Notes under the pieces: model-generated | Databases searched by the model: none | Seen by the model: the letters and a program-made list of their open reading frames with translations, nothing else | Told to the model about the DNA's origin: nothing | Part shown: positions 23,198 through 36,518 of the stretch, one piece after another | How positions within the stretch are numbered: the first letter of the stretch is position 1 | How the letters are laid out: the number at the start of each line of letters is the position of its first letter | NCBI GenBank assembly: GCA_028727785.1 | Contig: JAQYNQ010000087.1 | Location: 4,746 to 68,745 of the forward strand | DNA from: Eubacteriaceae bacterium | GTDB taxonomy: Bacteria; Bacillota; Clostridia; Peptostreptococcales; Anaerovoracaceae | DNA: 64,000 bases | Reading direction: 5' to 3' | Made by a program: the position numbers and the translations under genes

Positions 23198-23208
<11 letters not shown>
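22186..23208 (+). CDS. ruvB: Holliday junction helicase RuvB
   Basis: Motifs [27 protein letters not shown] and [12 protein letters not shown]. Confidence 0.98.
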
Positions 23209-26562
<3,354 letters not shown>

Positions 26563-26565
26563 TCA

Positions 26566-28149
26566 GTGTTAACAGTTACAAATGTAAGTATGAACTTTAG
26601 CGGGCAGATTTTATTTAAGGATGTTGATCTAAAGTTTACTCAGGGCAACTGCTATGGTATTATCGGAGCAAACGGTGCGGGAAAATCGACATTTTTGAGA
26701 ATTCTATCAGGAGATTTAGAGCCGACAACCGGTACAGTATCTCTGAAACCGCATACAAGAATGTCTGTGCTTAAGCAGGATCACTTTGCCTTCGATGAGT
26801 TTACTGTGCTTGATACAGTTATTCAGGGAAATGCCAGACTGTATCAGGTTATGCAGGAAAAGAATGCCATATACATGAAGGAAGATTTTTCAGAAGAAGA
26901 CGGTATCAAAGCAGCAGAGCTTGAGGCGGAATTTGCTGAAATGGATGGTTGGGAAGCTGATTCAAATGTAAGCAAGCTGATTCAGGGTCTGGGTCTTCCG
27001 GAAGATATTTTATACAGTCCAATGTCAAGCTTGACAGCCAAGGAAAAGGTAAAGGTGCTTCTTGCACAGGCTTTATTCGGTAATCCGGAAATAGTACTGC
27101 TTGACGAGCCTACTAACCATCTGGATATCAAAGCCATCAACTGGCTGGAGGAATTTCTGATGGAGTATCCGGGAACAGTGCTTGTAGTCTCACATGACAG
27201 ACATTTTTTAAATGCTGTCTGCACAAATATTGTTGACGTAGACTACGGAAAGATCAAGATGTATGTTGGTAACTACGAGTTCTGGTATGAGTCATCTCAG
27301 CTTATGCAGAAGCTGATTTCAAATCAGAAAAAGAGAACAGAAGAAAAAATAAAGGAGCTTCAGACATTTATTCAGAGATTCAGTTCCAACAAATCCAAGG
27401 CAAAGCAGGCAACATCGAGACGCAAGCTTCTTGACAAGCTGACCGTTGAAGAACTTCCGGCGTCCTCACGTCGCTATCCTTTTGTTGGATTTACAATGGA
27501 AAGAGAAGCCGGTAAGGATATTCTTGAAGTAAATGGAATTTCAAAAACAATAGATGGAGTTAAAGTCCTTGATAATGTAACTTTCAGAGTGAACAAAGGC
27601 GACAAAATCGCCTTTGTCGGAGAAAACGAAATAGCAAATACAACTTTGTTTAAGATTCTTATGGGTGAGATGGAACCGGATGAAGGCAGCTATAAATGGG
27701 GAATTACCATTACTACATCATATCTTCCAATTGACAACTCCGATTACTTTAACGGTTCAGAATACAATATGATAGAATGGCTGAGTCAATATACAAAAGA
27801 AACTACAGAAACCTTTATGAGAGGATTCCTTGGAAGAATGCTTTTCTCAGGTGACGACGTTTACAAGAATGTTCAGGTTTTATCCGGAGGTGAAAAGGTA
27901 AGATGCATGCTTTCACGCATGATGCTTTACGGATCAAATGCACTGGTCCTTGACCAGCCGACAAACCATCTTGATCTAGAATCAATTACTGCAGTTAATG
28001 AGGGGCTTATAAACTTTAAAGGAAATGTTATCTTTGCATCCCATGACCATGAGTTCATTCAGACAATTGCTAACCGTATTATGGAAATAAGGCCGGATGG
28101 CACACTTGTTGACAAGCTCTGCACATACGATGAATATATTGAAATGTAA
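26566..28149 (+). CDS. ABC-F family ribosome-associated ATPase (YbiT/YkpA-like)
   Basis: GTG start; two NBDs ([18 protein letters not shown]; [15 protein letters not shown]), a linker and no TM segments. Confidence 0.9.
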
Positions 28150-28160
28150 TTTCAGGAGGC

Positions 28161-28718
28161 ATGAAAATGGATAATGAAAAAATTAAAGAAGGTGTACGAC
28201 TGATTCTGGAGGGAATCGGTGAAGACGTAAACAGAGAAGGACTTCTGGATACTCCTGATCGTATTGCACGTATGTGTGAACAGATTTTTGGCGGGCTGGA
28301 ACAGGATGCTTCAGTTCATTTTGAAAAGAAATTTCACGCAGTAAATAACAATATTGTAATTGAAAAGGATATTATTTTCCATTCCGTGTGCGAGCATCAT
28401 CTGTTACCTTTCTTTGGAAAAGCCCATGTTGCATATATTCCAAATGAAAAAGTTGCAGGATTGAGCAAACTTGCACGTACTGTTGAAGTATTTGCAAGAA
28501 GACCGCAGATTCAGGAAAACATGACTGCACAGATTGCCGAAGCTGTTGAAAAATACCTTGAGCCTAAGGGCGTAATGGTAATGATTGAAGCTGAACACAT
28601 GTGCATGTCAATGAGAGGCGTTCAAAAACCGGGCACAAAAACAGTGACCACAATCACAAAGGGTGCTTTTGCTGAGGATTACAGCCTTCAGCAGACTTTC
28701 ATGCAAATGGTGAAATAG
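28161..28718 (+). CDS. folE: GTP cyclohydrolase I
   Basis: Motifs [27 protein letters not shown] and HMCMSMRG. Confidence 0.96.
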
Positions 28719-29192
28719 ATGAATCGCGTTAACAGTGTATGGTGTCATCCTTTATTTCAGGAGAATTATCAAAAGCTGCAGATTGCAGAAAAAAAACGGG
28801 TTTTCTGCTGCCATGGTCTGAATCATTTATTAGATGTGGCAAGATTAATGTATATAAGAAGCCTTGAAGATAATTCCGAGCTGGACAAAGAATTAATATA
28901 CACCACAGCTTTGCTCCATGATATTGGAAGGTTTGTTCAGATAGATAAGGGCATCCCTCATAATGAGGCAGGTGCCGAGCTGGCAGAAAAGATTCTGGCA
29001 GATTGTGGTTATTCAAAGGCGGAGTCTGTTTTGATATGTGAGGCAATAGGAGAACACAGACAGGGAAGTGACAGCATTCTTGGAGGCTATCTTTATGATG
29101 CAGATAAGAAATCAAGATGCTGCTATGCATGTGATGCCTGGGATGAATGCAAATGGCCGGATGAAAAGAAAAATTCTGAAATAAGGGTTTAA
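28719..29192 (+). CDS. HD-domain phosphohydrolase
   Basis: H...ALLHDIGR...H...H...DAD pattern; abuts folE. Confidence 0.85.
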   Translation: MNRVNSVWCHPLFQENYQKLQIAEKKRVFCCHGLNHLLDVARLMYIRSLEDNSELDKELIYTTALLHDIGRFVQIDKGIPHNEAGAELAEKILADCGYSKAESVLICEAIGEHRQGSDSILGGYLYDADKKSRCCYACDAWDECKWPDEKKNSEIRV

Positions 29193-29205
29193 AAAGGATA
29201 GGAAA

Positions 29206-30012
29206 ATGATTATAGGAAACAGAAATTTTGATACGGAAAATAATTGTTATATTATGGGAATTTTAAATGTGACGCCTGATTCATTCTCTGACGGGGGAAG
29301 GTTTAACAGCCTGGATAGGGCACTTTTTCATGTAGAAGAGATGATTAATGAAGGCGTAGATATTATTGATATAGGTGGAGAATCTACCAGACCGGGGCAT
29401 CAGGTCATTACATCTGCAGAGGAAATTGCAAGAGTTGTTCCTGTTATTGAGGGAGTGAAAAACCGATTCGACATTCCTGTTTCAATTGATACTTATAAGG
29501 GAGATGTTACTGAAGCAGCACTTCAGGCAGGTGCAGATCTGGTTAATGATATCTGGGGATTCAAGCACGATTTCCGTGTTGCAGAACTGACTGCCGAATA
29601 TGATGCGGCATGCTGTCTGATGCATAATAGAAATGAGGCTGTATATAATGATTTTCAGAAAGATTTTCTGACTGATATGGAAGAATGTGTTGCCCTTGCA
29701 AGAAAGGCAGGCGTTCCTGATGACAAGATCATTCTTGACCCGGGTGTAGGCTTCGGAAAAACCTATGAAATGAATCTGGAAATTATCAATCATCTTGAGA
29801 TTTTAAATACTCTGGGCTTCCCTGTACTTCTTGGAACATCGAGAAAATCAGTAATAGGTAACACACTGGATTTACCTACTGATCAGAGAGTTGAGGGTAC
29901 TCTTGCAACTACTGTATTCGGTGTAATAAAGGGATGCTCATTTGTTCGTGTGCACGATATTAAAGAGAATCTTCGCACTGTTAAAATGACTAAAGCAATA
30001 TTAAGCAGATAG
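29206..30012 (+). CDS. folP: Dihydropteroate synthase
   Basis: Motifs MGILNVTPDSFSDGG, IGGESTRPG, LDPGVGFGK, LGTSRKS and VRVHD. Confidence 0.97.
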   Translation: MIIGNRNFDTENNCYIMGILNVTPDSFSDGGRFNSLDRALFHVEEMINEGVDIIDIGGESTRPGHQVITSAEEIARVVPVIEGVKNRFDIPVSIDTYKGDVTEAALQAGADLVNDIWGFKHDFRVAELTAEYDAACCLMHNRNEAVYNDFQKDFLTDMEECVALARKAGVPDDKIILDPGVGFGKTYEMNLEIINHLEILNTLGFPVLLGTSRKSVIGNTLDLPTDQRVEGTLATTVFGVIKGCSFVRVHDIKENLRTVKMTKAILSR

Positions 30013-30024
30013 AGTAGGAGTATT

Positions 30025-30837
30025 ATGGATAAGATTACAATTAAGAATCTGGAAGTGTTCGCTAATCACGGAGTATTTCCTGAAGAAAATGTTCTTGGAC
30101 AAAAGTTTGTGATAACTGCTGTAATGTATACTGATACCAGAAAGGCCGGAATGACAGATAATTTGGAGCAGTCTATTCATTACGGGGAGGTCAGTCACTT
30201 TATTAAAAAGCATGTTGAAAGTCATACTTTTATGTTAATCGAACGTGTGGCAGAAACACTTGCAGAAGCACTTTTAATTGAATATCCGTTAATGGAAAAA
30301 ATAGAGATAGAGATTGCCAAGCCATGGGCACCTGTTGGACTGCCTCTTGAAACTGTTTCTGTAGATATCTGTCGGGGATGGCATACAGCATATATTGCAC
30401 TCGGTTCAAATATGGGAGACACAAAAGGGTATCTTGATGATGCGGTTAGAAAGCTGGACAGCCTGGATACATGCCGCGTTGCAAAAGTCGCTGATTATAT
30501 AGAGACTGAACCTTATGGCGGGGTAGAGCAGGACAACTTTCTTAACAGTGCACTGGAGCTTCGCACGTTACTTACTCCGGAAGAACTACTTTATCAGCTT
30601 CATGTCATTGAACAGGAAGCTCATAGAGAACGGCTAGTTCACTGGGGTCCAAGAACCCTTGATCTGGATATTATTCTGTATGATGATATTATCTTTGATA
30701 CTGAGGATTTGCATATTCCACATGTGGAAATGCACAAGAGAAGTTTTGTTCTTGATCCTATGATTCAGCTGGCTCCGTATAAGAGACATCCTGTATTTGG
30801 TAAAACCATGTTAGAGCTTAGGGAAAAGCTTGACTAG
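30025..30837 (+). CDS. folK: Bifunctional dihydroneopterin aldolase / HPPK (FolB-FolK fusion)
   Basis: FolB half: HGVFPEE, HYGEV, LIERVAE, KPWAP. FolK half: IALGSNMG, WGPRTLDLDI. Confidence 0.94.
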   Translation: MDKITIKNLEVFANHGVFPEENVLGQKFVITAVMYTDTRKAGMTDNLEQSIHYGEVSHFIKKHVESHTFMLIERVAETLAEALLIEYPLMEKIEIEIAKPWAPVGLPLETVSVDICRGWHTAYIALGSNMGDTKGYLDDAVRKLDSLDTCRVAKVADYIETEPYGGVEQDNFLNSALELRTLLTPEELLYQLHVIEQEAHRERLVHWGPRTLDLDIILYDDIIFDTEDLHIPHVEMHKRSFVLDPMIQLAPYKRHPVFGKTMLELREKLD

Positions 30838-30909
30838 ATAACTCTACTTCCCGTAGGTACACACATATCTTTAATCATGTTAACATCTTTACGAAGGGAG
30901 ATGAGAATA

Positions 30910-31177
30910 ATGAATCAGTACGTAACAGGAGCTATTATTAAAAAACTTCGTGAAGAAAAAAAGATGACTCAGCTTGAGCTTGCGGGTAAACTGTGTGTCA
31001 GCGAGAAGACTGTATCAAAGTGGGAGAACGGGAAAGGATATCCGGATATTGCCATTTTAGAGGATATTGCGTCTTCTCTATAAACATCGCGAGGAATATG
31101 CTCCGATTGGAGTTTTTATGCTGGGTATGATAGTTGTAATTACAGCTTCTGCAGTTGTTATCGGTGTGTTAGTGTAA
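30910..31177 (+). pseudogene. Truncated XRE-family HTH regulator; a C-terminal TM remnant follows in a shifted frame
   Basis: MNQYVTGAIIKKLREEKKMTQLELAGKLCVSEKTVSKWENGKGYPD stops at 31083. The +1 frame 31085-31177 reads HREEYAPIGVFMLGMIVVITASAVVIGVLV*. Confidence 0.6.
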
Positions 31178-31214
31178 AATCGATAAAAAAGCAGCTTTGC
31201 TGAGAGGAACAGAA

Positions 31215-31793
31215 ATGTCAGATTATAGAAAAGAACTCAGAAAAACAAAAATACATGCAAGAGACAGCTTATCCTCAGAAGAGAGGCAGCAGCTTTCTGC
31301 TTTGATTTCAGAAAGGGTTGCCACCTCGGAACTGTATAAGAAGGCAAAGACGGTACTGATTTATCGTGCTACCAGAGGAGAAGTCAGACTGGAGAATCTT
31401 GAAGAGGCTAAAGAATCAGAAGGTAAGAGACTTGCTTTTCCGTTGTGCATATCTAACAGCGATATGATTGCTCTGCTTCCGGATGGAGATAATGCGTGGG
31501 AGTCAGGGTATTGCGGAATAATGGAGCCTATAAGGGAGAAATCTGTAGAAATACCACCGACGGAAATAGATCTGGTTATCTGTCCATGCACCGTTTTTGA
31601 CGAAAAATGCGGCAGGATGGGTATGGGAGCAGGATTTTATGACCGGTATATCGAAAAGTGCGTTAATGCTGATATAGTTGCTGTTGCATTTGAAGTTCAA
31701 AAGGCTGAATACATACCTATGGAACCATGGGATAAGCCCATGGAGGCAGTCTTCACCGAAGAAGCTGTATACGTGAAAGAAACAACAGAATAA
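31215..31793 (+). CDS. 5-formyltetrahydrofolate cyclo-ligase
   Basis: Motifs KELRK, GEV, IMEP, DLVICP and GRMGMGAGFYDRY; the SD supports ATG 31215. Confidence 0.9.
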   Translation: MSDYRKELRKTKIHARDSLSSEERQQLSALISERVATSELYKKAKTVLIYRATRGEVRLENLEEAKESEGKRLAFPLCISNSDMIALLPDGDNAWESGYCGIMEPIREKSVEIPPTEIDLVICPCTVFDEKCGRMGMGAGFYDRYIEKCVNADIVAVAFEVQKAEYIPMEPWDKPMEAVFTEEAVYVKETTE

Positions 31794-31805
31794 TAATGTT
31801 ATATC

Positions 31806-31840
31806 ACCCTCAGAGTATGGTTATTATATCTGAGGGTTTT
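31806..31840 (+). terminator. Intrinsic terminator
   Basis: ACCCTCAGA...TCTGAGGGT followed by TTT. Confidence 0.7.
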
Positions 31841-31867
31841 ATATTGTACGTCTATATTTTTGCACTC

Positions 31868-31896
31868 TTGAATTTAGCATAAAGCTGAAGTATCAT
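31868..31896 (+). promoter_or_regulatory. sigma-A promoter (TTGAAT-17-TATCAT) of the riboswitch-controlled operon
   Basis: Read directly; predicts a 5' UTR of about 100 nt starting near 31903. Confidence 0.65.
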
Positions 31897-31943
31897 ATAA
31901 AATACGGGTAGCTTTACATTGAAGGCTGTATATGCACCTGTAT

Positions 31944-31994
31944 CAAGCAGTTCGGGTCCGATATCCTGCTTGTAAAATATTAAAACCAAAGGAG
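31944..31994 (+). ncRNA. preQ1 class I riboswitch (translational, abutting the SD); P0-like structure upstream at 31902-31943
   Basis: P1 stem CAAGCAG/CTGCTTG. The loop starts UUCG and ends ...AUC. An A-rich tail TAAAATATTAAAACC runs directly into AAAGGAG. It sits in front of a VUT-family transporter. Confidence 0.82.
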
Positions 31995-32001
31995 AAAGAA
32001 A

Positions 32002-32730
32002 ATGAATTATTTGAAAAGAGAGTTAGAGGATTTAAGAATCCTGCTCAGGAATGTGCCGAGCCTGGTAGTGTCACTGTTTTTTATCAGCGTGATAGTTATG
32101 AATCTGCTGGCAAACAAGGAACTTTTTTCGGCAAAGTACCTTGCACTTGACTGCGGGTTTACTGTAAGCTGGATTTCATTTCTGTGTATGGACATGATCT
32201 GTAAGCATTTTGGCCCTAAGGCAGCTGCAAAGATTTCGGTTATGGCACTGCTTATCAATCTGGGGGTCTGCCTGCTGTTTAAGCTTATGAGCATGACTCC
32301 AGGAATGTGGGGAGAGTTTTACACCTTCGGTTCTGAAGATGTAAATCAGGCTCTTAACAATACCATTGGCGGCAGCTGGTATATTGTTTTCGGTAGCAGT
32401 CTGGCAATGCTTGTATCAGCTATATGTAACTCGGTGATAAACCACTCTATAGGAAAAAGACTGAAAACAGATGACTATAAGGCCTTTGCCATCCGTTCTT
32501 TCACGTCTACAGGAATCGCACAGTTTATTGATAACCTTGTCTTTGCTACAGTTGTATCCCATGTTTTCTTTGGATGGACATGGGTCCAGGTTCTGACATG
32601 TTCACTGACAGGCGCAGCAATGGAACTTCTTGGAGAAATTGTACTAAGTCCTGTCGGATACAGGGCAAGCCGCAGCTGGAAGAAGGATGGAGTAGGTAAG
32701 GAGTATCTTAAATATATAGGAGAAAAATAA
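32002..32730 (+). CDS. VUT-family (YhhQ-like) queuosine-precursor transporter
   Basis: Polytopic membrane protein with MNLLANK, FLCMDMICKHFG, RSFTSTGIAQFIDNLVF; lies downstream of the preQ1 riboswitch. Confidence 0.85.
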   Translation: MNYLKRELEDLRILLRNVPSLVVSLFFISVIVMNLLANKELFSAKYLALDCGFTVSWISFLCMDMICKHFGPKAAAKISVMALLINLGVCLLFKLMSMTPGMWGEFYTFGSEDVNQALNNTIGGSWYIVFGSSLAMLVSAICNSVINHSIGKRLKTDDYKAFAIRSFTSTGIAQFIDNLVFATVVSHVFFGWTWVQVLTCSLTGAAMELLGEIVLSPVGYRASRSWKKDGVGKEYLKYIGEK

Positions 32731-32731
32731 A

Positions 32732-33391
32732 ATGGATATATTGATAACAGGAACCTCCACCGGAATTGGAAGAGCAATTGCAGTGAAGTTTCTGGAAAAG
32801 GGACACACTGTATGGGGTTTTGATATAAAGGAAAGCTCCATAAGCAGTAAAGATTATACCCACTATATTTTAGATGTCAGAGATGTGATGTCTTATCCTG
32901 CTGACCTGAAACCTCACGTAATTATTAATAATGCAGGGGTTCAGAACAGTGGAGATGACATAGATATAAATTTAAAAGGTGTAATTCAAATTACAGAGCA
33001 CTATGCATTTTGCAACGGGAATATTCGCTCAGTTGTAAACATCGGATCTGCAAGTGCTCATACCGGGTCGGAATTTCCCGAATATGCGGCATCTAAAGGC
33101 GGACTTATTGCTTATACCAAAAATGTTGCAAACCGTCTGGCACCTGAGGCAATATGTAACAGTATAGATCCGGGTGGAGTTTTGACTGAACTTAATCGCC
33201 CTGTAATGGAAGACAGAAATCTATGGGAACAGATTATGGATCTTACGCCGCTTAAACGATGGGCAACTCCTGAAGAGATTGCTGACTGGGTATATTTTGT
33301 GGCAGTTGAGAACAGATTTATGACCGGGCAGAATCTTCTTATTGACGGAGGAGAGGCCGGCAAAACGAAATTCGTCTGGCCTGAGGAATAA
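32732..33391 (+). CDS. Short-chain dehydrogenase/reductase, probably NAD(H)-specific
   Basis: TGTSTGIG, Asp after beta-2 (WGFDIK), NNAG, Ser in NIGSAS, YAASK, PGGV.T and TGQNLLIDGG. Confidence 0.92.
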   Translation: MDILITGTSTGIGRAIAVKFLEKGHTVWGFDIKESSISSKDYTHYILDVRDVMSYPADLKPHVIINNAGVQNSGDDIDINLKGVIQITEHYAFCNGNIRSVVNIGSASAHTGSEFPEYAASKGGLIAYTKNVANRLAPEAICNSIDPGGVLTELNRPVMEDRNLWEQIMDLTPLKRWATPEEIADWVYFVAVENRFMTGQNLLIDGGEAGKTKFVWPEE

Positions 33392-34912
<1,521 letters not shown>

Positions 34913-34917
34913 AGTCT

Positions 34918-35814
34918 ATGACAATAGCAGTAATAGGATCTATTTTTGTAGATATAAAAGGTTATCCCTCTGATATATATATTTCTCAGGGGAGAAATGC
35001 AGGTCGCGTGGAACAGGTTCACGGTGGAGTCGGGCGCAATGTTGCAGCTGATATCTCCGGTATGGGATTCGATACCGTGTTTATCAGCCTTGTGGATTAC
35101 TCCGGAATGGGTGAAGATGTTATACGTAAACTGAATGATTGCAGTATTTGTACTGAGTACATTGCAAGGGTTAATGACGGAATGGGAACATGGCTTGCTG
35201 TCTTTGATCATAATGGTGACGTTGTAGGCTCTATATCAAAGAGACCAGATATGAGCTACCTGACACGTATCTTAGAGGAGTCAGGAGACAGTATCTTTAA
35301 AGCTGCAGACAGCATTGTTCTTCAGCTGGATATGGAACTTTCCACTGTAGAGAAAACACTTTCACTGGCAGAGATATACGGCAAGGATGTCTATGCGGTG
35401 ATTTCAAATATGAGCATAGTCATGGAAAGAAAAGATTATCTGAAATCTTTATCATGTGTCGTCTGTAATATTCAGGAAGCTGAAATGCTGTTTTCAGAGG
35501 AGTACTCCACATACAGCATTGAAGAAATGATTACAGAGGTAAGGCACAAGGCACATGAACATGGATTAAGGAGATTAGTGATCACCATGGGTGGTGAAGG
35601 CGCTGTGTACTGTGATATTGACGGCACTTCCGGATTCTGTCCGGCAAAAAAAGTTCAGGTTGTAGACACCACCGGAGCAGGTGATGCATTCCTTGCAGGT
35701 GTGGCTGCAGGTCTGACAACCGGAAAGAATCTTGCTGATGCCTGTAAAACAGGCTCCTGTCTTGCAGCTGCAGTAATCGGTACTTCGGAAAATATCTGTC
35801 AGGGGGTTATATAA
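34918..35814 (+). CDS. PfkB/ribokinase-family kinase, pseudouridine-kinase-like
   Basis: Motifs GSIFVD, GGVGRNVA and VDTTGAGDAFLAG. Confidence 0.85.
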   Translation: MTIAVIGSIFVDIKGYPSDIYISQGRNAGRVEQVHGGVGRNVAADISGMGFDTVFISLVDYSGMGEDVIRKLNDCSICTEYIARVNDGMGTWLAVFDHNGDVVGSISKRPDMSYLTRILEESGDSIFKAADSIVLQLDMELSTVEKTLSLAEIYGKDVYAVISNMSIVMERKDYLKSLSCVVCNIQEAEMLFSEEYSTYSIEEMITEVRHKAHEHGLRRLVITMGGEGAVYCDIDGTSGFCPAKKVQVVDTTGAGDAFLAGVAAGLTTGKNLADACKTGSCLAAAVIGTSENICQGVI

Positions 35815-36518
35815 TGAGGGAGAGTATAGTAGAAGAAATAAGAAACAGGCTTTTTCAGCTTCAGGATTTGAAGTATAAGGAATTCCATTCACGCCTTATT
35901 CCAAATGTAGAACCTGACACTGTAATCGGCGTGAGAATGCCGGCTATGAGAAAACTGGCTAAGGAAGTCTCTAAGTGGGATAATATAGGTGCCTTTTTAT
36001 CCTCAACTCATGAGTACTATGAGGAAAAGAATATTCATGGTCTGATAATTGAGAAGTGCAAAGATTTTAATCAGCTTATAAAGCTGCTTGATGATTTTCT
36101 TCCGTGTGTGGATAACTGGGCTACATGCGATCTGTTAAGTCCAAAGCTTTTTAAGAAGTATCCGGAGGAAACACTGACAGAAATCAGACGATGGATTTCA
36201 AGTGATGCACCTTATACAAAAAGATTTGGCATAGAAATGCTTATGAGCTTTTATTTAGATGAAAACTTTAAAGCTGAATATCTTGAAATTGTTTCTCCAA
36301 TCAGGTCGAAAGAATATTATGTGAACATGATGATTGCGTGGTTCTTTGCGACTGCCCTTGCCAAGCAGTGGGACGCAACAGTTCCTTATATTGAAGAGCG
36401 CAAACTTGATACATGGACTCATAATAAGACTATTCAAAAGGCAATAGAAAGCTATAGAGTTTCTGATGAAAAGAAGGAATACTTAAGGGGATTAAAATGG
36501 CAAAGAGCAGGAAAATAA
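35814..36518 (+). CDS. alkD: DNA alkylation repair glycosylase (AlkD-like)
   Basis: Motifs IGVRMP, YYEE, VDNWATCD, YYVNMMIAWFFATAL and HNKTIQKA.ESYR. Confidence 0.85.
   Translation: MRESIVEEIRNRLFQLQDLKYKEFHSRLIPNVEPDTVIGVRMPAMRKLAKEVSKWDNIGAFLSSTHEYYEEKNIHGLIIEKCKDFNQLIKLLDDFLPCVDNWATCDLLSPKLFKKYPEETLTEIRRWISSDAPYTKRFGIEMLMSFYLDENFKAEYLEIVSPIRSKEYYVNMMIAWFFATALAKQWDATVPYIEERKLDTWTHNKTIQKAIESYRVSDEKKEYLRGLKWQRAGK

Follow-up and report, generated by a model that had tools for sequence, protein, structure and literature searches.

A putative preQ1-regulated transporter and dehydrogenase cassette for queuosine-precursor salvage in a Eubacteriaceae bacterium, with relatives in other bacteria and in phages

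We analysed a stretch of 64,000 nucleotides (nt) from Eubacteriaceae bacterium (assembly GCA_028727785.1, contig JAQYNQ010000087.1, positions 4,746-68,745, forward strand). The whole stretch is called the window, and all coordinates are positions within it. The region under study, 31868-33391, carries a structured leader RNA, a Vut_1/QPTR-type transporter gene (QPTR, queuosine precursor transporter) and a gene for a short-chain dehydrogenase/reductase (SDR). On balance, we favour reading the region as a self-contained cassette for the salvage of a queuosine (Q) precursor in a gut bacterium unable to make preQ1. That it is a Q-precursor salvage cassette regulated by preQ1 is very probable, and the SDR probably acts on an imported deazaguanine compound. 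The conversion of queuine to preQ1 as the reaction of the SDR is a tentative proposal. The features of the region are as follows.

31868-31896, plus strand: sigma-70-like promoter, TTGAAT-17-TATCAT, with a 9/12 match to the consensus
31944-31994, plus strand: putative preQ1-I-like H-type pseudoknot aptamer, 51 nt, recognised by covariation and cross-phylum conservation
31944-50 with 31966-72, plus strand: P1 of the leader, 7 base pairs (bp)
Leader loop, 15 nt: UUCGGGUCCGAUAUC
UCC 31957-59 with GGA 31991-93, plus strand: P2 of the leader, its GGA inside the Shine-Dalgarno (SD) sequence GGAG
31973-31990: A-rich tail of the leader, 18 nt, with a conserved CC at 31986-87
32002-32730, plus strand: Vut_1/QPTR (YhhQ-family) transporter, 242 amino acids (aa), PF02592 at 85.4 bits against a cut-off of 27.2
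32732-33391, plus strand: compact classical SDR, 219 aa, NAD-type, PF13561/PF00106, starting one base after the transporter stop

A preliminary description of this DNA had named a promoter site, a leader, a VUT/YhhQ-like transporter and, after a 1-nt gap, an SDR, and all of them are present at these positions.

The transporter and the SDR recur together in many gut bacteria, distant ones among them. All 19 SDR homologs in species-representative genomes (52-83% identity) lie directly downstream of a Vut_1 gene, and their flanking genes vary. They belong to Lachnospiraceae, Erysipelotrichaceae, Oscillospiraceae and Coriobacteriia. No Vut_1 gene adjoins the homolog that follows in rank, at 31% identity, so the SDR family ends between about 38% and 31% identity. 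In metagenomes, 117 instances of the leader motif had at least 1.5 kb of downstream sequence. Vut_1 and the SDR followed in 98 of them, Vut_1 and an amidase in 15, QueT alone in 3, and the last was on a chimeric contig. These are counts of contigs, many from the same abundant species, and not of independent events. Only one of the 114 complete motif-led Vut_1 genes of the window clade has no enzyme partner, and it lies on a chimeric contig. There is also one apparent Vut_1-SDR fusion, an open reading frame (ORF) of 488 aa (L027, G278:C85). It is a single case; its same-genus relatives have two genes, and a sequencing error is possible.

The pair was also found in phages. SDR homologs with 38-57% identity are present on 28 viral contigs, and a Vut_1 gene lies upstream in 27 of them. 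On seven large viral contigs, the Vut_1-SDR pair is followed by QueF, QueC, QueD (PTPS), QueE and FolE. The leaders of the phage pairs are related large-loop pseudoknots, in which P1 covaries freely and a UCCU/AGGA pairing reaches the SD. The preliminary description had tentatively assigned the SDR to Q metabolism and had proposed its gene neighbourhood as a check. The neighbourhood agrees with this assignment: given the Vut_1 adjacency in the bacterial genomes and the viral contigs, the one fusion and the QueF-QueC-QueD-QueE-FolE neighbours in phages, a functional tie of the SDR to 7-deazaguanine/queuosine metabolism is supported by gene context. In the 138-kb viral contig L167 (6234-11534), the order is Vut_1, SDR, a 180-aa ORF, QueF, QueC, QueD, QueE and FolE, and the same arrangement is seen in L169-L172, L174 and L175. 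The 180-aa ORF between the SDR and QueF has no Pfam match, and the phage QueD has an N-terminal extension.

In Lachnospiraceae, Erysipelotrichaceae and Coriobacteriia, an almost unchanged copy of the 51-nt leader stands before the orthologous gene pair. When metagenomes were scanned with a pattern of the motif, 137 instances with 55 distinct sequences came up, and the helix and covariation statistics were calculated from 36 distinct leader sequences. P1 was 99.6% paired, with compensatory changes at 5 of its 7 pairs. P2, between the loop UCC and the GGA of the SD, was 100% paired with 2 compensatory pairs; it becomes CUC/GAG in a second leader subtype, and one U-G wobble was seen. When the helices were slid out of register as a control, pairing dropped to 31-47%, and the observed covariation score was reached by none of 500 shuffles. 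The columns U10, U11, U23, C24, A41-A44, C45 and C46 were invariant. The leader is a conserved structured RNA, an H-type pseudoknot whose P2 buries the ribosome-binding site. An alternative P2, pairing the loop GG with the tail CC, was just 78% paired with zero covariation, so the UCC/GGA pairing is preferred.

The hallmarks of type I preQ1-I aptamers are UU after the 5' strand of P1, UC before the 3' strand of P1 and a conserved C in the A-rich tail (2024 review, PMC11625349). The leader has all three. With the type I aptamer (Carnobacterium antarcticum; RF00522) it shares the H-type pseudoknot, the UU/UC hallmarks, the A-rich tail with its conserved C, a predicted SD-based translational control and the association with queT. 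It differs in its 7-bp P1, its loop of 15 nt instead of about 12, a P2 formed from a mid-loop UCC, its 18-nt tail, and a CC in place of the consensus CU. When a covariance model was made from the leader, its low-score matches in other Clostridia were preQ1-I leaders of the classical kind, before queF and queT; it also matched the large-loop pseudoknots of the phage pairs. In 3 metagenome contigs, QueT alone stands behind the identical aptamer core. From its architecture, hallmark nucleotides and gene association, we assign the leader to the preQ1-I fold, as a large-loop form that is not yet catalogued. Because the identical core precedes three different gene arrangements, we infer that the ligand is most likely their shared end product, preQ1. 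Two distant Vut_1-SDR pairs (SDR identity 55-58%) have differing leaders (L017:5150-5250 and L018:5150-5245). By eye only, these resemble other preQ1-I subtypes, and their Rfam scores are at most 14.3 bits; one example reads AGAAGGUG...CCAUCUUCU, with a CCUUG/CAAGG pairing to the SD.

The transporter of the window scored 41.8 bits with TIGR00697 (queuosine precursor transporter equivalog), below the cut-off of 50.95, and its relatives scored 29-48 bits. At locus L019, the SDR-linked partner is a canonical QPTR, which passes TIGR00697 at 98.5 bits. Considering also the PF02592 match, we regard the window transporter as a divergent-clade relative of QPTR/YhhQ, in line with its earlier assignment. 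The Vut_1 gene is single-copy in the window's genome (tblastn), and in genomes with tgt and queA but without queC, queF and QueT it would be the sole candidate importer. A similar arrangement is known for E. coli yhhQ (type III preQ1-I riboswitch; PMC11625349), where an SD-occluding pseudoknot of the preQ1-I fold also controls a Vut_1-family importer. However, yhhQ of E. coli has no partner enzyme. In addition, the specificity position of the window aptamer reads UC instead of AC, its loops are much longer, and the window transporter stays under the TIGR00697 cut-off.

The SDR gene has its own AGGAG within the 3' end of the transporter gene, and its translation is probably coupled to that of the transporter. 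The motifs TGTSTGIG, D31 after beta-2 and NNAG are invariant in the clade, and so is the catalytic tetrad N80-S106-Y118-K122 (Y118-x3-K122). The earlier listing of TGxxxGIG, an acidic residue after beta-2 and an S/YxxxK triad was thus correct for the whole clade. The motifs HTGSEFPEY and C-terminal F[VI]WP are invariant and specific to the clade, and no Cys is invariant across it. The invariant D31 would mark a preference for NAD(H), which favours the oxidative direction. The AlphaFold model of the SDR had a predicted local distance difference test (pLDDT) score of 89.7, and Foldseek returned generic SDR neighbours only, with template modelling (TM) scores of about 0.8-0.88 at 24-29% identity (about 0.85 to the FabG type). 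The best solved relatives in sequence and fold searches of the PDB were FabG, aldohexose dehydrogenase, 4-hydroxyisoleucine dehydrogenase and EntA, and no characterised SDR is closer than about 30% identity.

In fold, N-S-Y-K tetrad and cofactor site, the window SDR matches these classical NAD-dependent enzymes, which act on cyclic vicinal diols and hydroxy acids. EntA (2,3-dihydro-2,3-dihydroxybenzoate dehydrogenase) oxidises a ring allylic alcohol, which is the type of chemistry proposed here for the window SDR. The window SDR differs from this whole group of enzymes in its shorter length (219 aa), the two clade motifs and its constant linkage to Vut_1. Compared with QueL, the radical S-adenosylmethionine (SAM) queuine lyase, it has a Rossmann fold and no Cys motif of the kind that binds 4Fe-4S and SAM, and any likeness would be functional only. 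Compared with QueF, a T-fold enzyme with a catalytic Cys and an E-x-K/S-LCP motif, it has neither a PF14489 match nor an invariant Cys. Thousands of its homologs are annotated merely as "SDR family oxidoreductase".

The window also contains two genes for the last steps of the pathway.

23198-24241, plus strand: queA, above the NCBIfam cut-off
24261-25382, plus strand: tgt, preQ1-type, above the NCBIfam cut-off

The queA-tgt pair lies about 6.6 kb upstream of the cassette, and this linkage is not conserved. Tgt carries AFDEC and GGLSVGE, the preQ1-type residues, which agrees with the earlier statement that a preQ1-type tgt adjoins queA. The absence of queC and queF, claimed at first for the window, extends to its genome: no queC, queF or QueT was found anywhere in the genome, which is 98.4% complete.

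We surveyed 27 cassette-bearing genomes against a background of 399 genomes of the same class. In the cassette genomes, tgt was present in 26/27, queA in 26/27, queC in 2/27, queF in 2/27 and QueT in 3/27. In the background, QueT was present in 277/399 (69%). The cassette and QueT largely exclude each other (Fisher p = 0.004 in-sample, 9e-10 for all 27), and because of this we believe that the cassette replaces QueT, the usual Q-precursor importer, in organisms that need a base usable by a preQ1-type Tgt. The host genomes appear to be preQ1 auxotrophs that have kept a preQ1-type Tgt and QueA.

Genome G405 is one of the two genomes with de novo genes as well as the Vut_1-SDR cassette. On its contig C5, minus strand (L193:2515-4700), an operon of queC, a canonical QPTR and queF stands behind a classical preQ1-I aptamer, and the aptamer is followed by a terminator-like hairpin. 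In the window's genome, a search for the QueL motif gave no match, by which the absence of QueL is not established. NCBIfam scans of its small radical-SAM ORFs yielded nothing but PflA, a radical-SAM protein linked to TatD, a mobile-pair-A-like protein and an unassigned B12-radical-SAM-like gene. The last of these, on contig C62 (about 25822-26694), encodes a radical-SAM-like protein of 290 aa with a CX4CX2C motif (GCSHNKCTFC) and only weak B12-radical-SAM matches; the gene adjoins mutS2 and argS and has no Q-related context.

The amidase instances, about 13% of the 117, place an amidase-signature protein in the position of the SDR behind the identical riboswitch core. These proteins (L071, L104, L162:4020-5495 and others) have 484-562 aa and are encoded directly behind a sister-clade Vut_1. 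Their closest solved relative is the aryl acylamidase 4YJ6 (E = 2.6e-128). The amidase-linked transporters form their own clade, with one separate case, which fits a transporter specificity that tracks the partner enzyme. The cassette amidase shares the amidase-signature fold and high similarity with aryl acylamidase (PDB 4YJ6/4YJI), an enzyme that hydrolyses N-acyl amines and frees the amine; it differs in its linkage to Vut_1 and to a preQ1-type riboswitch. By analogy, and more speculatively, the amidase version may act on N-acyl or N-formyl preQ1. The likeness suggests a wider theme, the release of preQ1 from N-substituted forms.

We propose the following mechanism. A 7-deazaguanine end product, most likely preQ1, would bind the leader and promote the H-type pseudoknot, in which P2 buries the SD of the first gene. 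Folding would shut off the Vut_1/QPTR importer and the coupled SDR together at the level of translation. The importer would take up a 7-deazaguanine compound, an N-substituted preQ1 derivative, from the gut, and the NAD-dependent SDR would convert it in the cytoplasm to a base that the preQ1-type Tgt inserts into tRNA and that QueA then elaborates. To our knowledge, the radical-SAM enzyme QueL is the only known route from queuine to preQ1, and the SDR may be a non-radical functional analogue of it. Queuine is our best guess for the substrate. NAD+-dependent oxidation of a hydroxyl of its cyclopentenediol would place the amine beta to the carbonyl, from where it could leave as preQ1; alternatively, an alpha-amino ketone could tautomerise to a hydrolysable imine, and preQ1 would then be freed. 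In the sister cassette, the aryl-acylamidase-like amidase would free preQ1 from an N-acylated form. The queuine proposal fits the NAD-type signature, the finding that QPTR members can be queuine-specific (PMC11130926), and the non-orthologous replacement of QueL that is explicitly expected in bacteria with QueK, a preQ1-type Tgt and QueA but no QueL (PMC12632869). Both cassettes could be joined in one scheme, in which the SDR is an oxygen-tolerant, non-radical queuine lyase and the amidase an N-acyl/N-formyl-preQ1 deacylase. They would then form an "unmasking" cassette family under a large-loop preQ1-I subtype, borrowed by gut phages for 7-deazaguanine DNA modification. We regard this joint scheme as doubtful. 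If it is true, N-substituted preQ1 derivatives from the host, from microbes and from phage DNA are turned into preQ1.

Several results weigh against the salvage reading. The preliminary description had called the leader a preQ1-I riboswitch and had suggested running RF00522 on it. The architecture, the hallmarks and the gene association stand on the side of this claim, and the Rfam score stands against it. At the gathering score, no Rfam family matched anywhere in the window, and RF00522 gave no match even at E<=10 in 31780-32030. The leader stays below about 14 bits, with the gathering score at 39, and neither the gathering nor the E-value searches with RF00522 ever scored the motif in the window, in related loci or in the leaders of L017/L018. 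A classical-looking queT-linked leader from another genome reaches just 25.1 bits against the same score. Because of this control, the miss is not decisive, and RF00522 is too strict to decide the identity of the leader either way. The leader is also longer (51 nt) than the minimal preQ1-I aptamer of about 34-36 nt. None of the described preQ1-I types has such a loop and tail, so the leader may bind another ligand. The sequence and fold searches with the SDR returned generic neighbours and nothing that points specifically to queuine. In the class background, queF was present in 34/399 genomes (8.5%); its frequency in the cassette genomes is the same as this (Fisher p = 1), and the anti-correlation with queF that the preliminary description had predicted is not visible at such a base rate. 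The cassette is not confined to auxotrophs, since queC/queF also occur in 2 cassette genomes and in the 7 phage contigs. Finally, queuine is no possible substrate for an amidase. The SDR and amidase versions of the cassette must therefore have different substrates, which is an extra assumption.

Other explanations of the SDR have been considered. The evidence places the enzyme in a 7-deazaguanine neighbourhood and leaves its substrate to be deduced, and a 7-deazaguanine compound other than queuine is a less likely but serious choice. As a reductase, the SDR could form the aminomethyl group from a side chain that is oxidised or carries an imine or amidine (7-formyl-7-deazaguanine, archaeosine base). 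It could oxidise the 3'-OH of an imported nucleoside (queuosine, preQ1 riboside), with release of the base by beta-elimination, or it could feed an earlier pathway step in phages. Phage and archaeal derivatives of 7-deazaguanine are plausible nutrients in the gut, and the position of the phage SDR upstream of QueF and QueC also fits a product that enters before preQ1. However, 25/27 bacterial hosts have no QueC and QueF, so the product must suit a preQ1-type Tgt directly. With its invariant NAD-type Asp, the SDR is more likely to oxidise than to serve a reductive biosynthesis, and queuine freed from queuosine would still leave the gap from queuine to preQ1. It is improbable that preQ1 itself is the imported compound, as it is for E. 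coli YhhQ, and that the SDR or amidase is accessory or hitch-hiking, with no part in making the Tgt substrate, for example by detoxifying co-imported analogues. A generic SDR fold would suit such a role, the G405 operon has no SDR, and canonical QPTR transports preQ1 and preQ0 without a partner enzyme (PMC11130926). Against this, the pairing is kept across phyla and phages despite changing flanks, with translational coupling and an apparent fusion; the enzyme partner is missing only for the single motif-led Vut_1 gene on a chimeric contig; and Vut_1 clades track the type of partner enzyme.

A role of the SDR as another type of nitrile reductase, by which hosts that lack QueF would make preQ1 from imported preQ0, is very improbable. 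QPTR proteins do transport preQ0 (PMC11130926), and the 25/27 hosts without QueF have Tgt and QueA. But the SDR sits right beside QueF in 7 phage contigs and co-occurs with QueF in 2 genomes, the lack of an invariant Cys leaves a QueF-like thioimide mechanism without its nucleophile, and the cofactor signature is of the NAD type. The amidase version, moreover, would be incapable of nitrile reduction, and we know of no SDR that reduces nitriles. We give hardly any credence to the salvage of a pterin or folate precursor, with the SDR as a pteridine or pterin-aldehyde reductase. Pterin-reducing SDRs are well known (FolM, PTR1, sepiapterin reductase), and folate genes lie directly upstream of the cassette. 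However, the folate genes stay beside the cassette only within the genus (L004/L023), and a terminator divides the folate unit from the cassette. The same RNA motif precedes QueT, the pair sits in phage preQ1 clusters, and no pterin reductase was among the top sequence or fold matches of the SDR.

The salvage of a Q precursor, the reading that we favour, has a counterpart in the queK-qrtT-queL genes of Clostridioides difficile, which serve queuine/queuosine salvage (Yuan et al. 2019, as presented in PMC11130926 and PMC11570991). As far as these two papers present that system, both consist of an importer and, in the adjacent slot, a cytoplasmic enzyme that regenerates preQ1 for a preQ1-type Tgt in a gut Firmicute without queCDEF; for the window cassette this is a proposal. 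On the same account, the window cassette differs in having a Vut_1/QPTR importer instead of an ECF (energy-coupling factor) S-component, an NAD-type SDR (or an amidase) with a putative reaction instead of a radical-SAM lyase, and no nucleoside hydrolase. No paper connecting preQ1 riboswitches or QPTR with an SDR or an amidase came up in full-text literature searches. The preliminary description did not foresee the amidase variant, the substitution of the cassette for QueT or the non-conserved folate neighbours.

The host, its gut bacteria and phages exchange queuosine and queuine as micronutrients. Of the Clostridia in this sample, most are unable to make preQ1, as the frequency of queF in the 399 genomes indicates. 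For the missing step of queuosine salvage, the cassette offers a cloneable candidate enzyme family with thousands of homologs. It also offers a second candidate, the amidase, together with a divergent transporter clade and an uncatalogued riboswitch subtype. If the proposal is true, metabolic reconstructions of how Q is exchanged in the microbiome would change, and so would those of phage 7-deazaguanine DNA modification that is fed by salvage.

The surroundings of the cassette in the window are listed below.

Plus-strand order, first part: ruvC, ruvA, ruvB, queA, tgt, rlmD-like methyltransferase gene, ABC-F ATPase gene
Plus-strand order, middle: folE, 157-aa ORF, folP, folB-folK, gene for a small helix-turn-helix (HTH) protein, 5-formyltetrahydrofolate (5-formyl-THF) cyclo-ligase gene (31197-31793)
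28161-31793: folate genes, directly upstream of the cassette
31807-31842, plus strand: intrinsic terminator of the 5-formyl-THF cyclo-ligase gene, CCCTCAGA...TCTGAGGG followed by a T-run
Plus-strand order, 3' of the Vut_1-SDR region: glpK, pfkB-type kinase gene, gene for an AlkD-like protein

The terminator appears to close the folate unit and to set the cassette apart as its own transcription unit; the same stem is visible in a weak AgvB-type hairpin alignment from the Rfam search. By motif count, 9 promoter-grade sites were found against 9.0 expected, so the site at 31868-31896 alone is not above chance. Identical hexamers with the same spacing are present in three close relatives (L001, L002, L004). 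The folate neighbourhood is retained solely within the genus, and the flanks differ at all other loci. Because of this restriction to the genus, the adjacency of the folate genes to the cassette is coincidental.

Some further genes of the window were noted. For the 157-aa ORF between folE and folP (28719-29192), NCBIfam gave no match at E<=1e-10. Between folB-folK and the 5-formyl-THF cyclo-ligase gene, positions 30877-31083 encode an XRE-type HTH protein of 68 aa. Downstream of the SDR gene, glpK, the pfkB-family kinase gene and the gene for the AlkD-like DNA-alkylation-repair protein occupy 33416-36518, with no obvious terminator between them and the SDR gene. The kinase is ribokinase- or pseudouridine-kinase-like and stays under all cut-offs. 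Only in the closest relatives do glpK and the AlkD-like gene adjoin the cassette.

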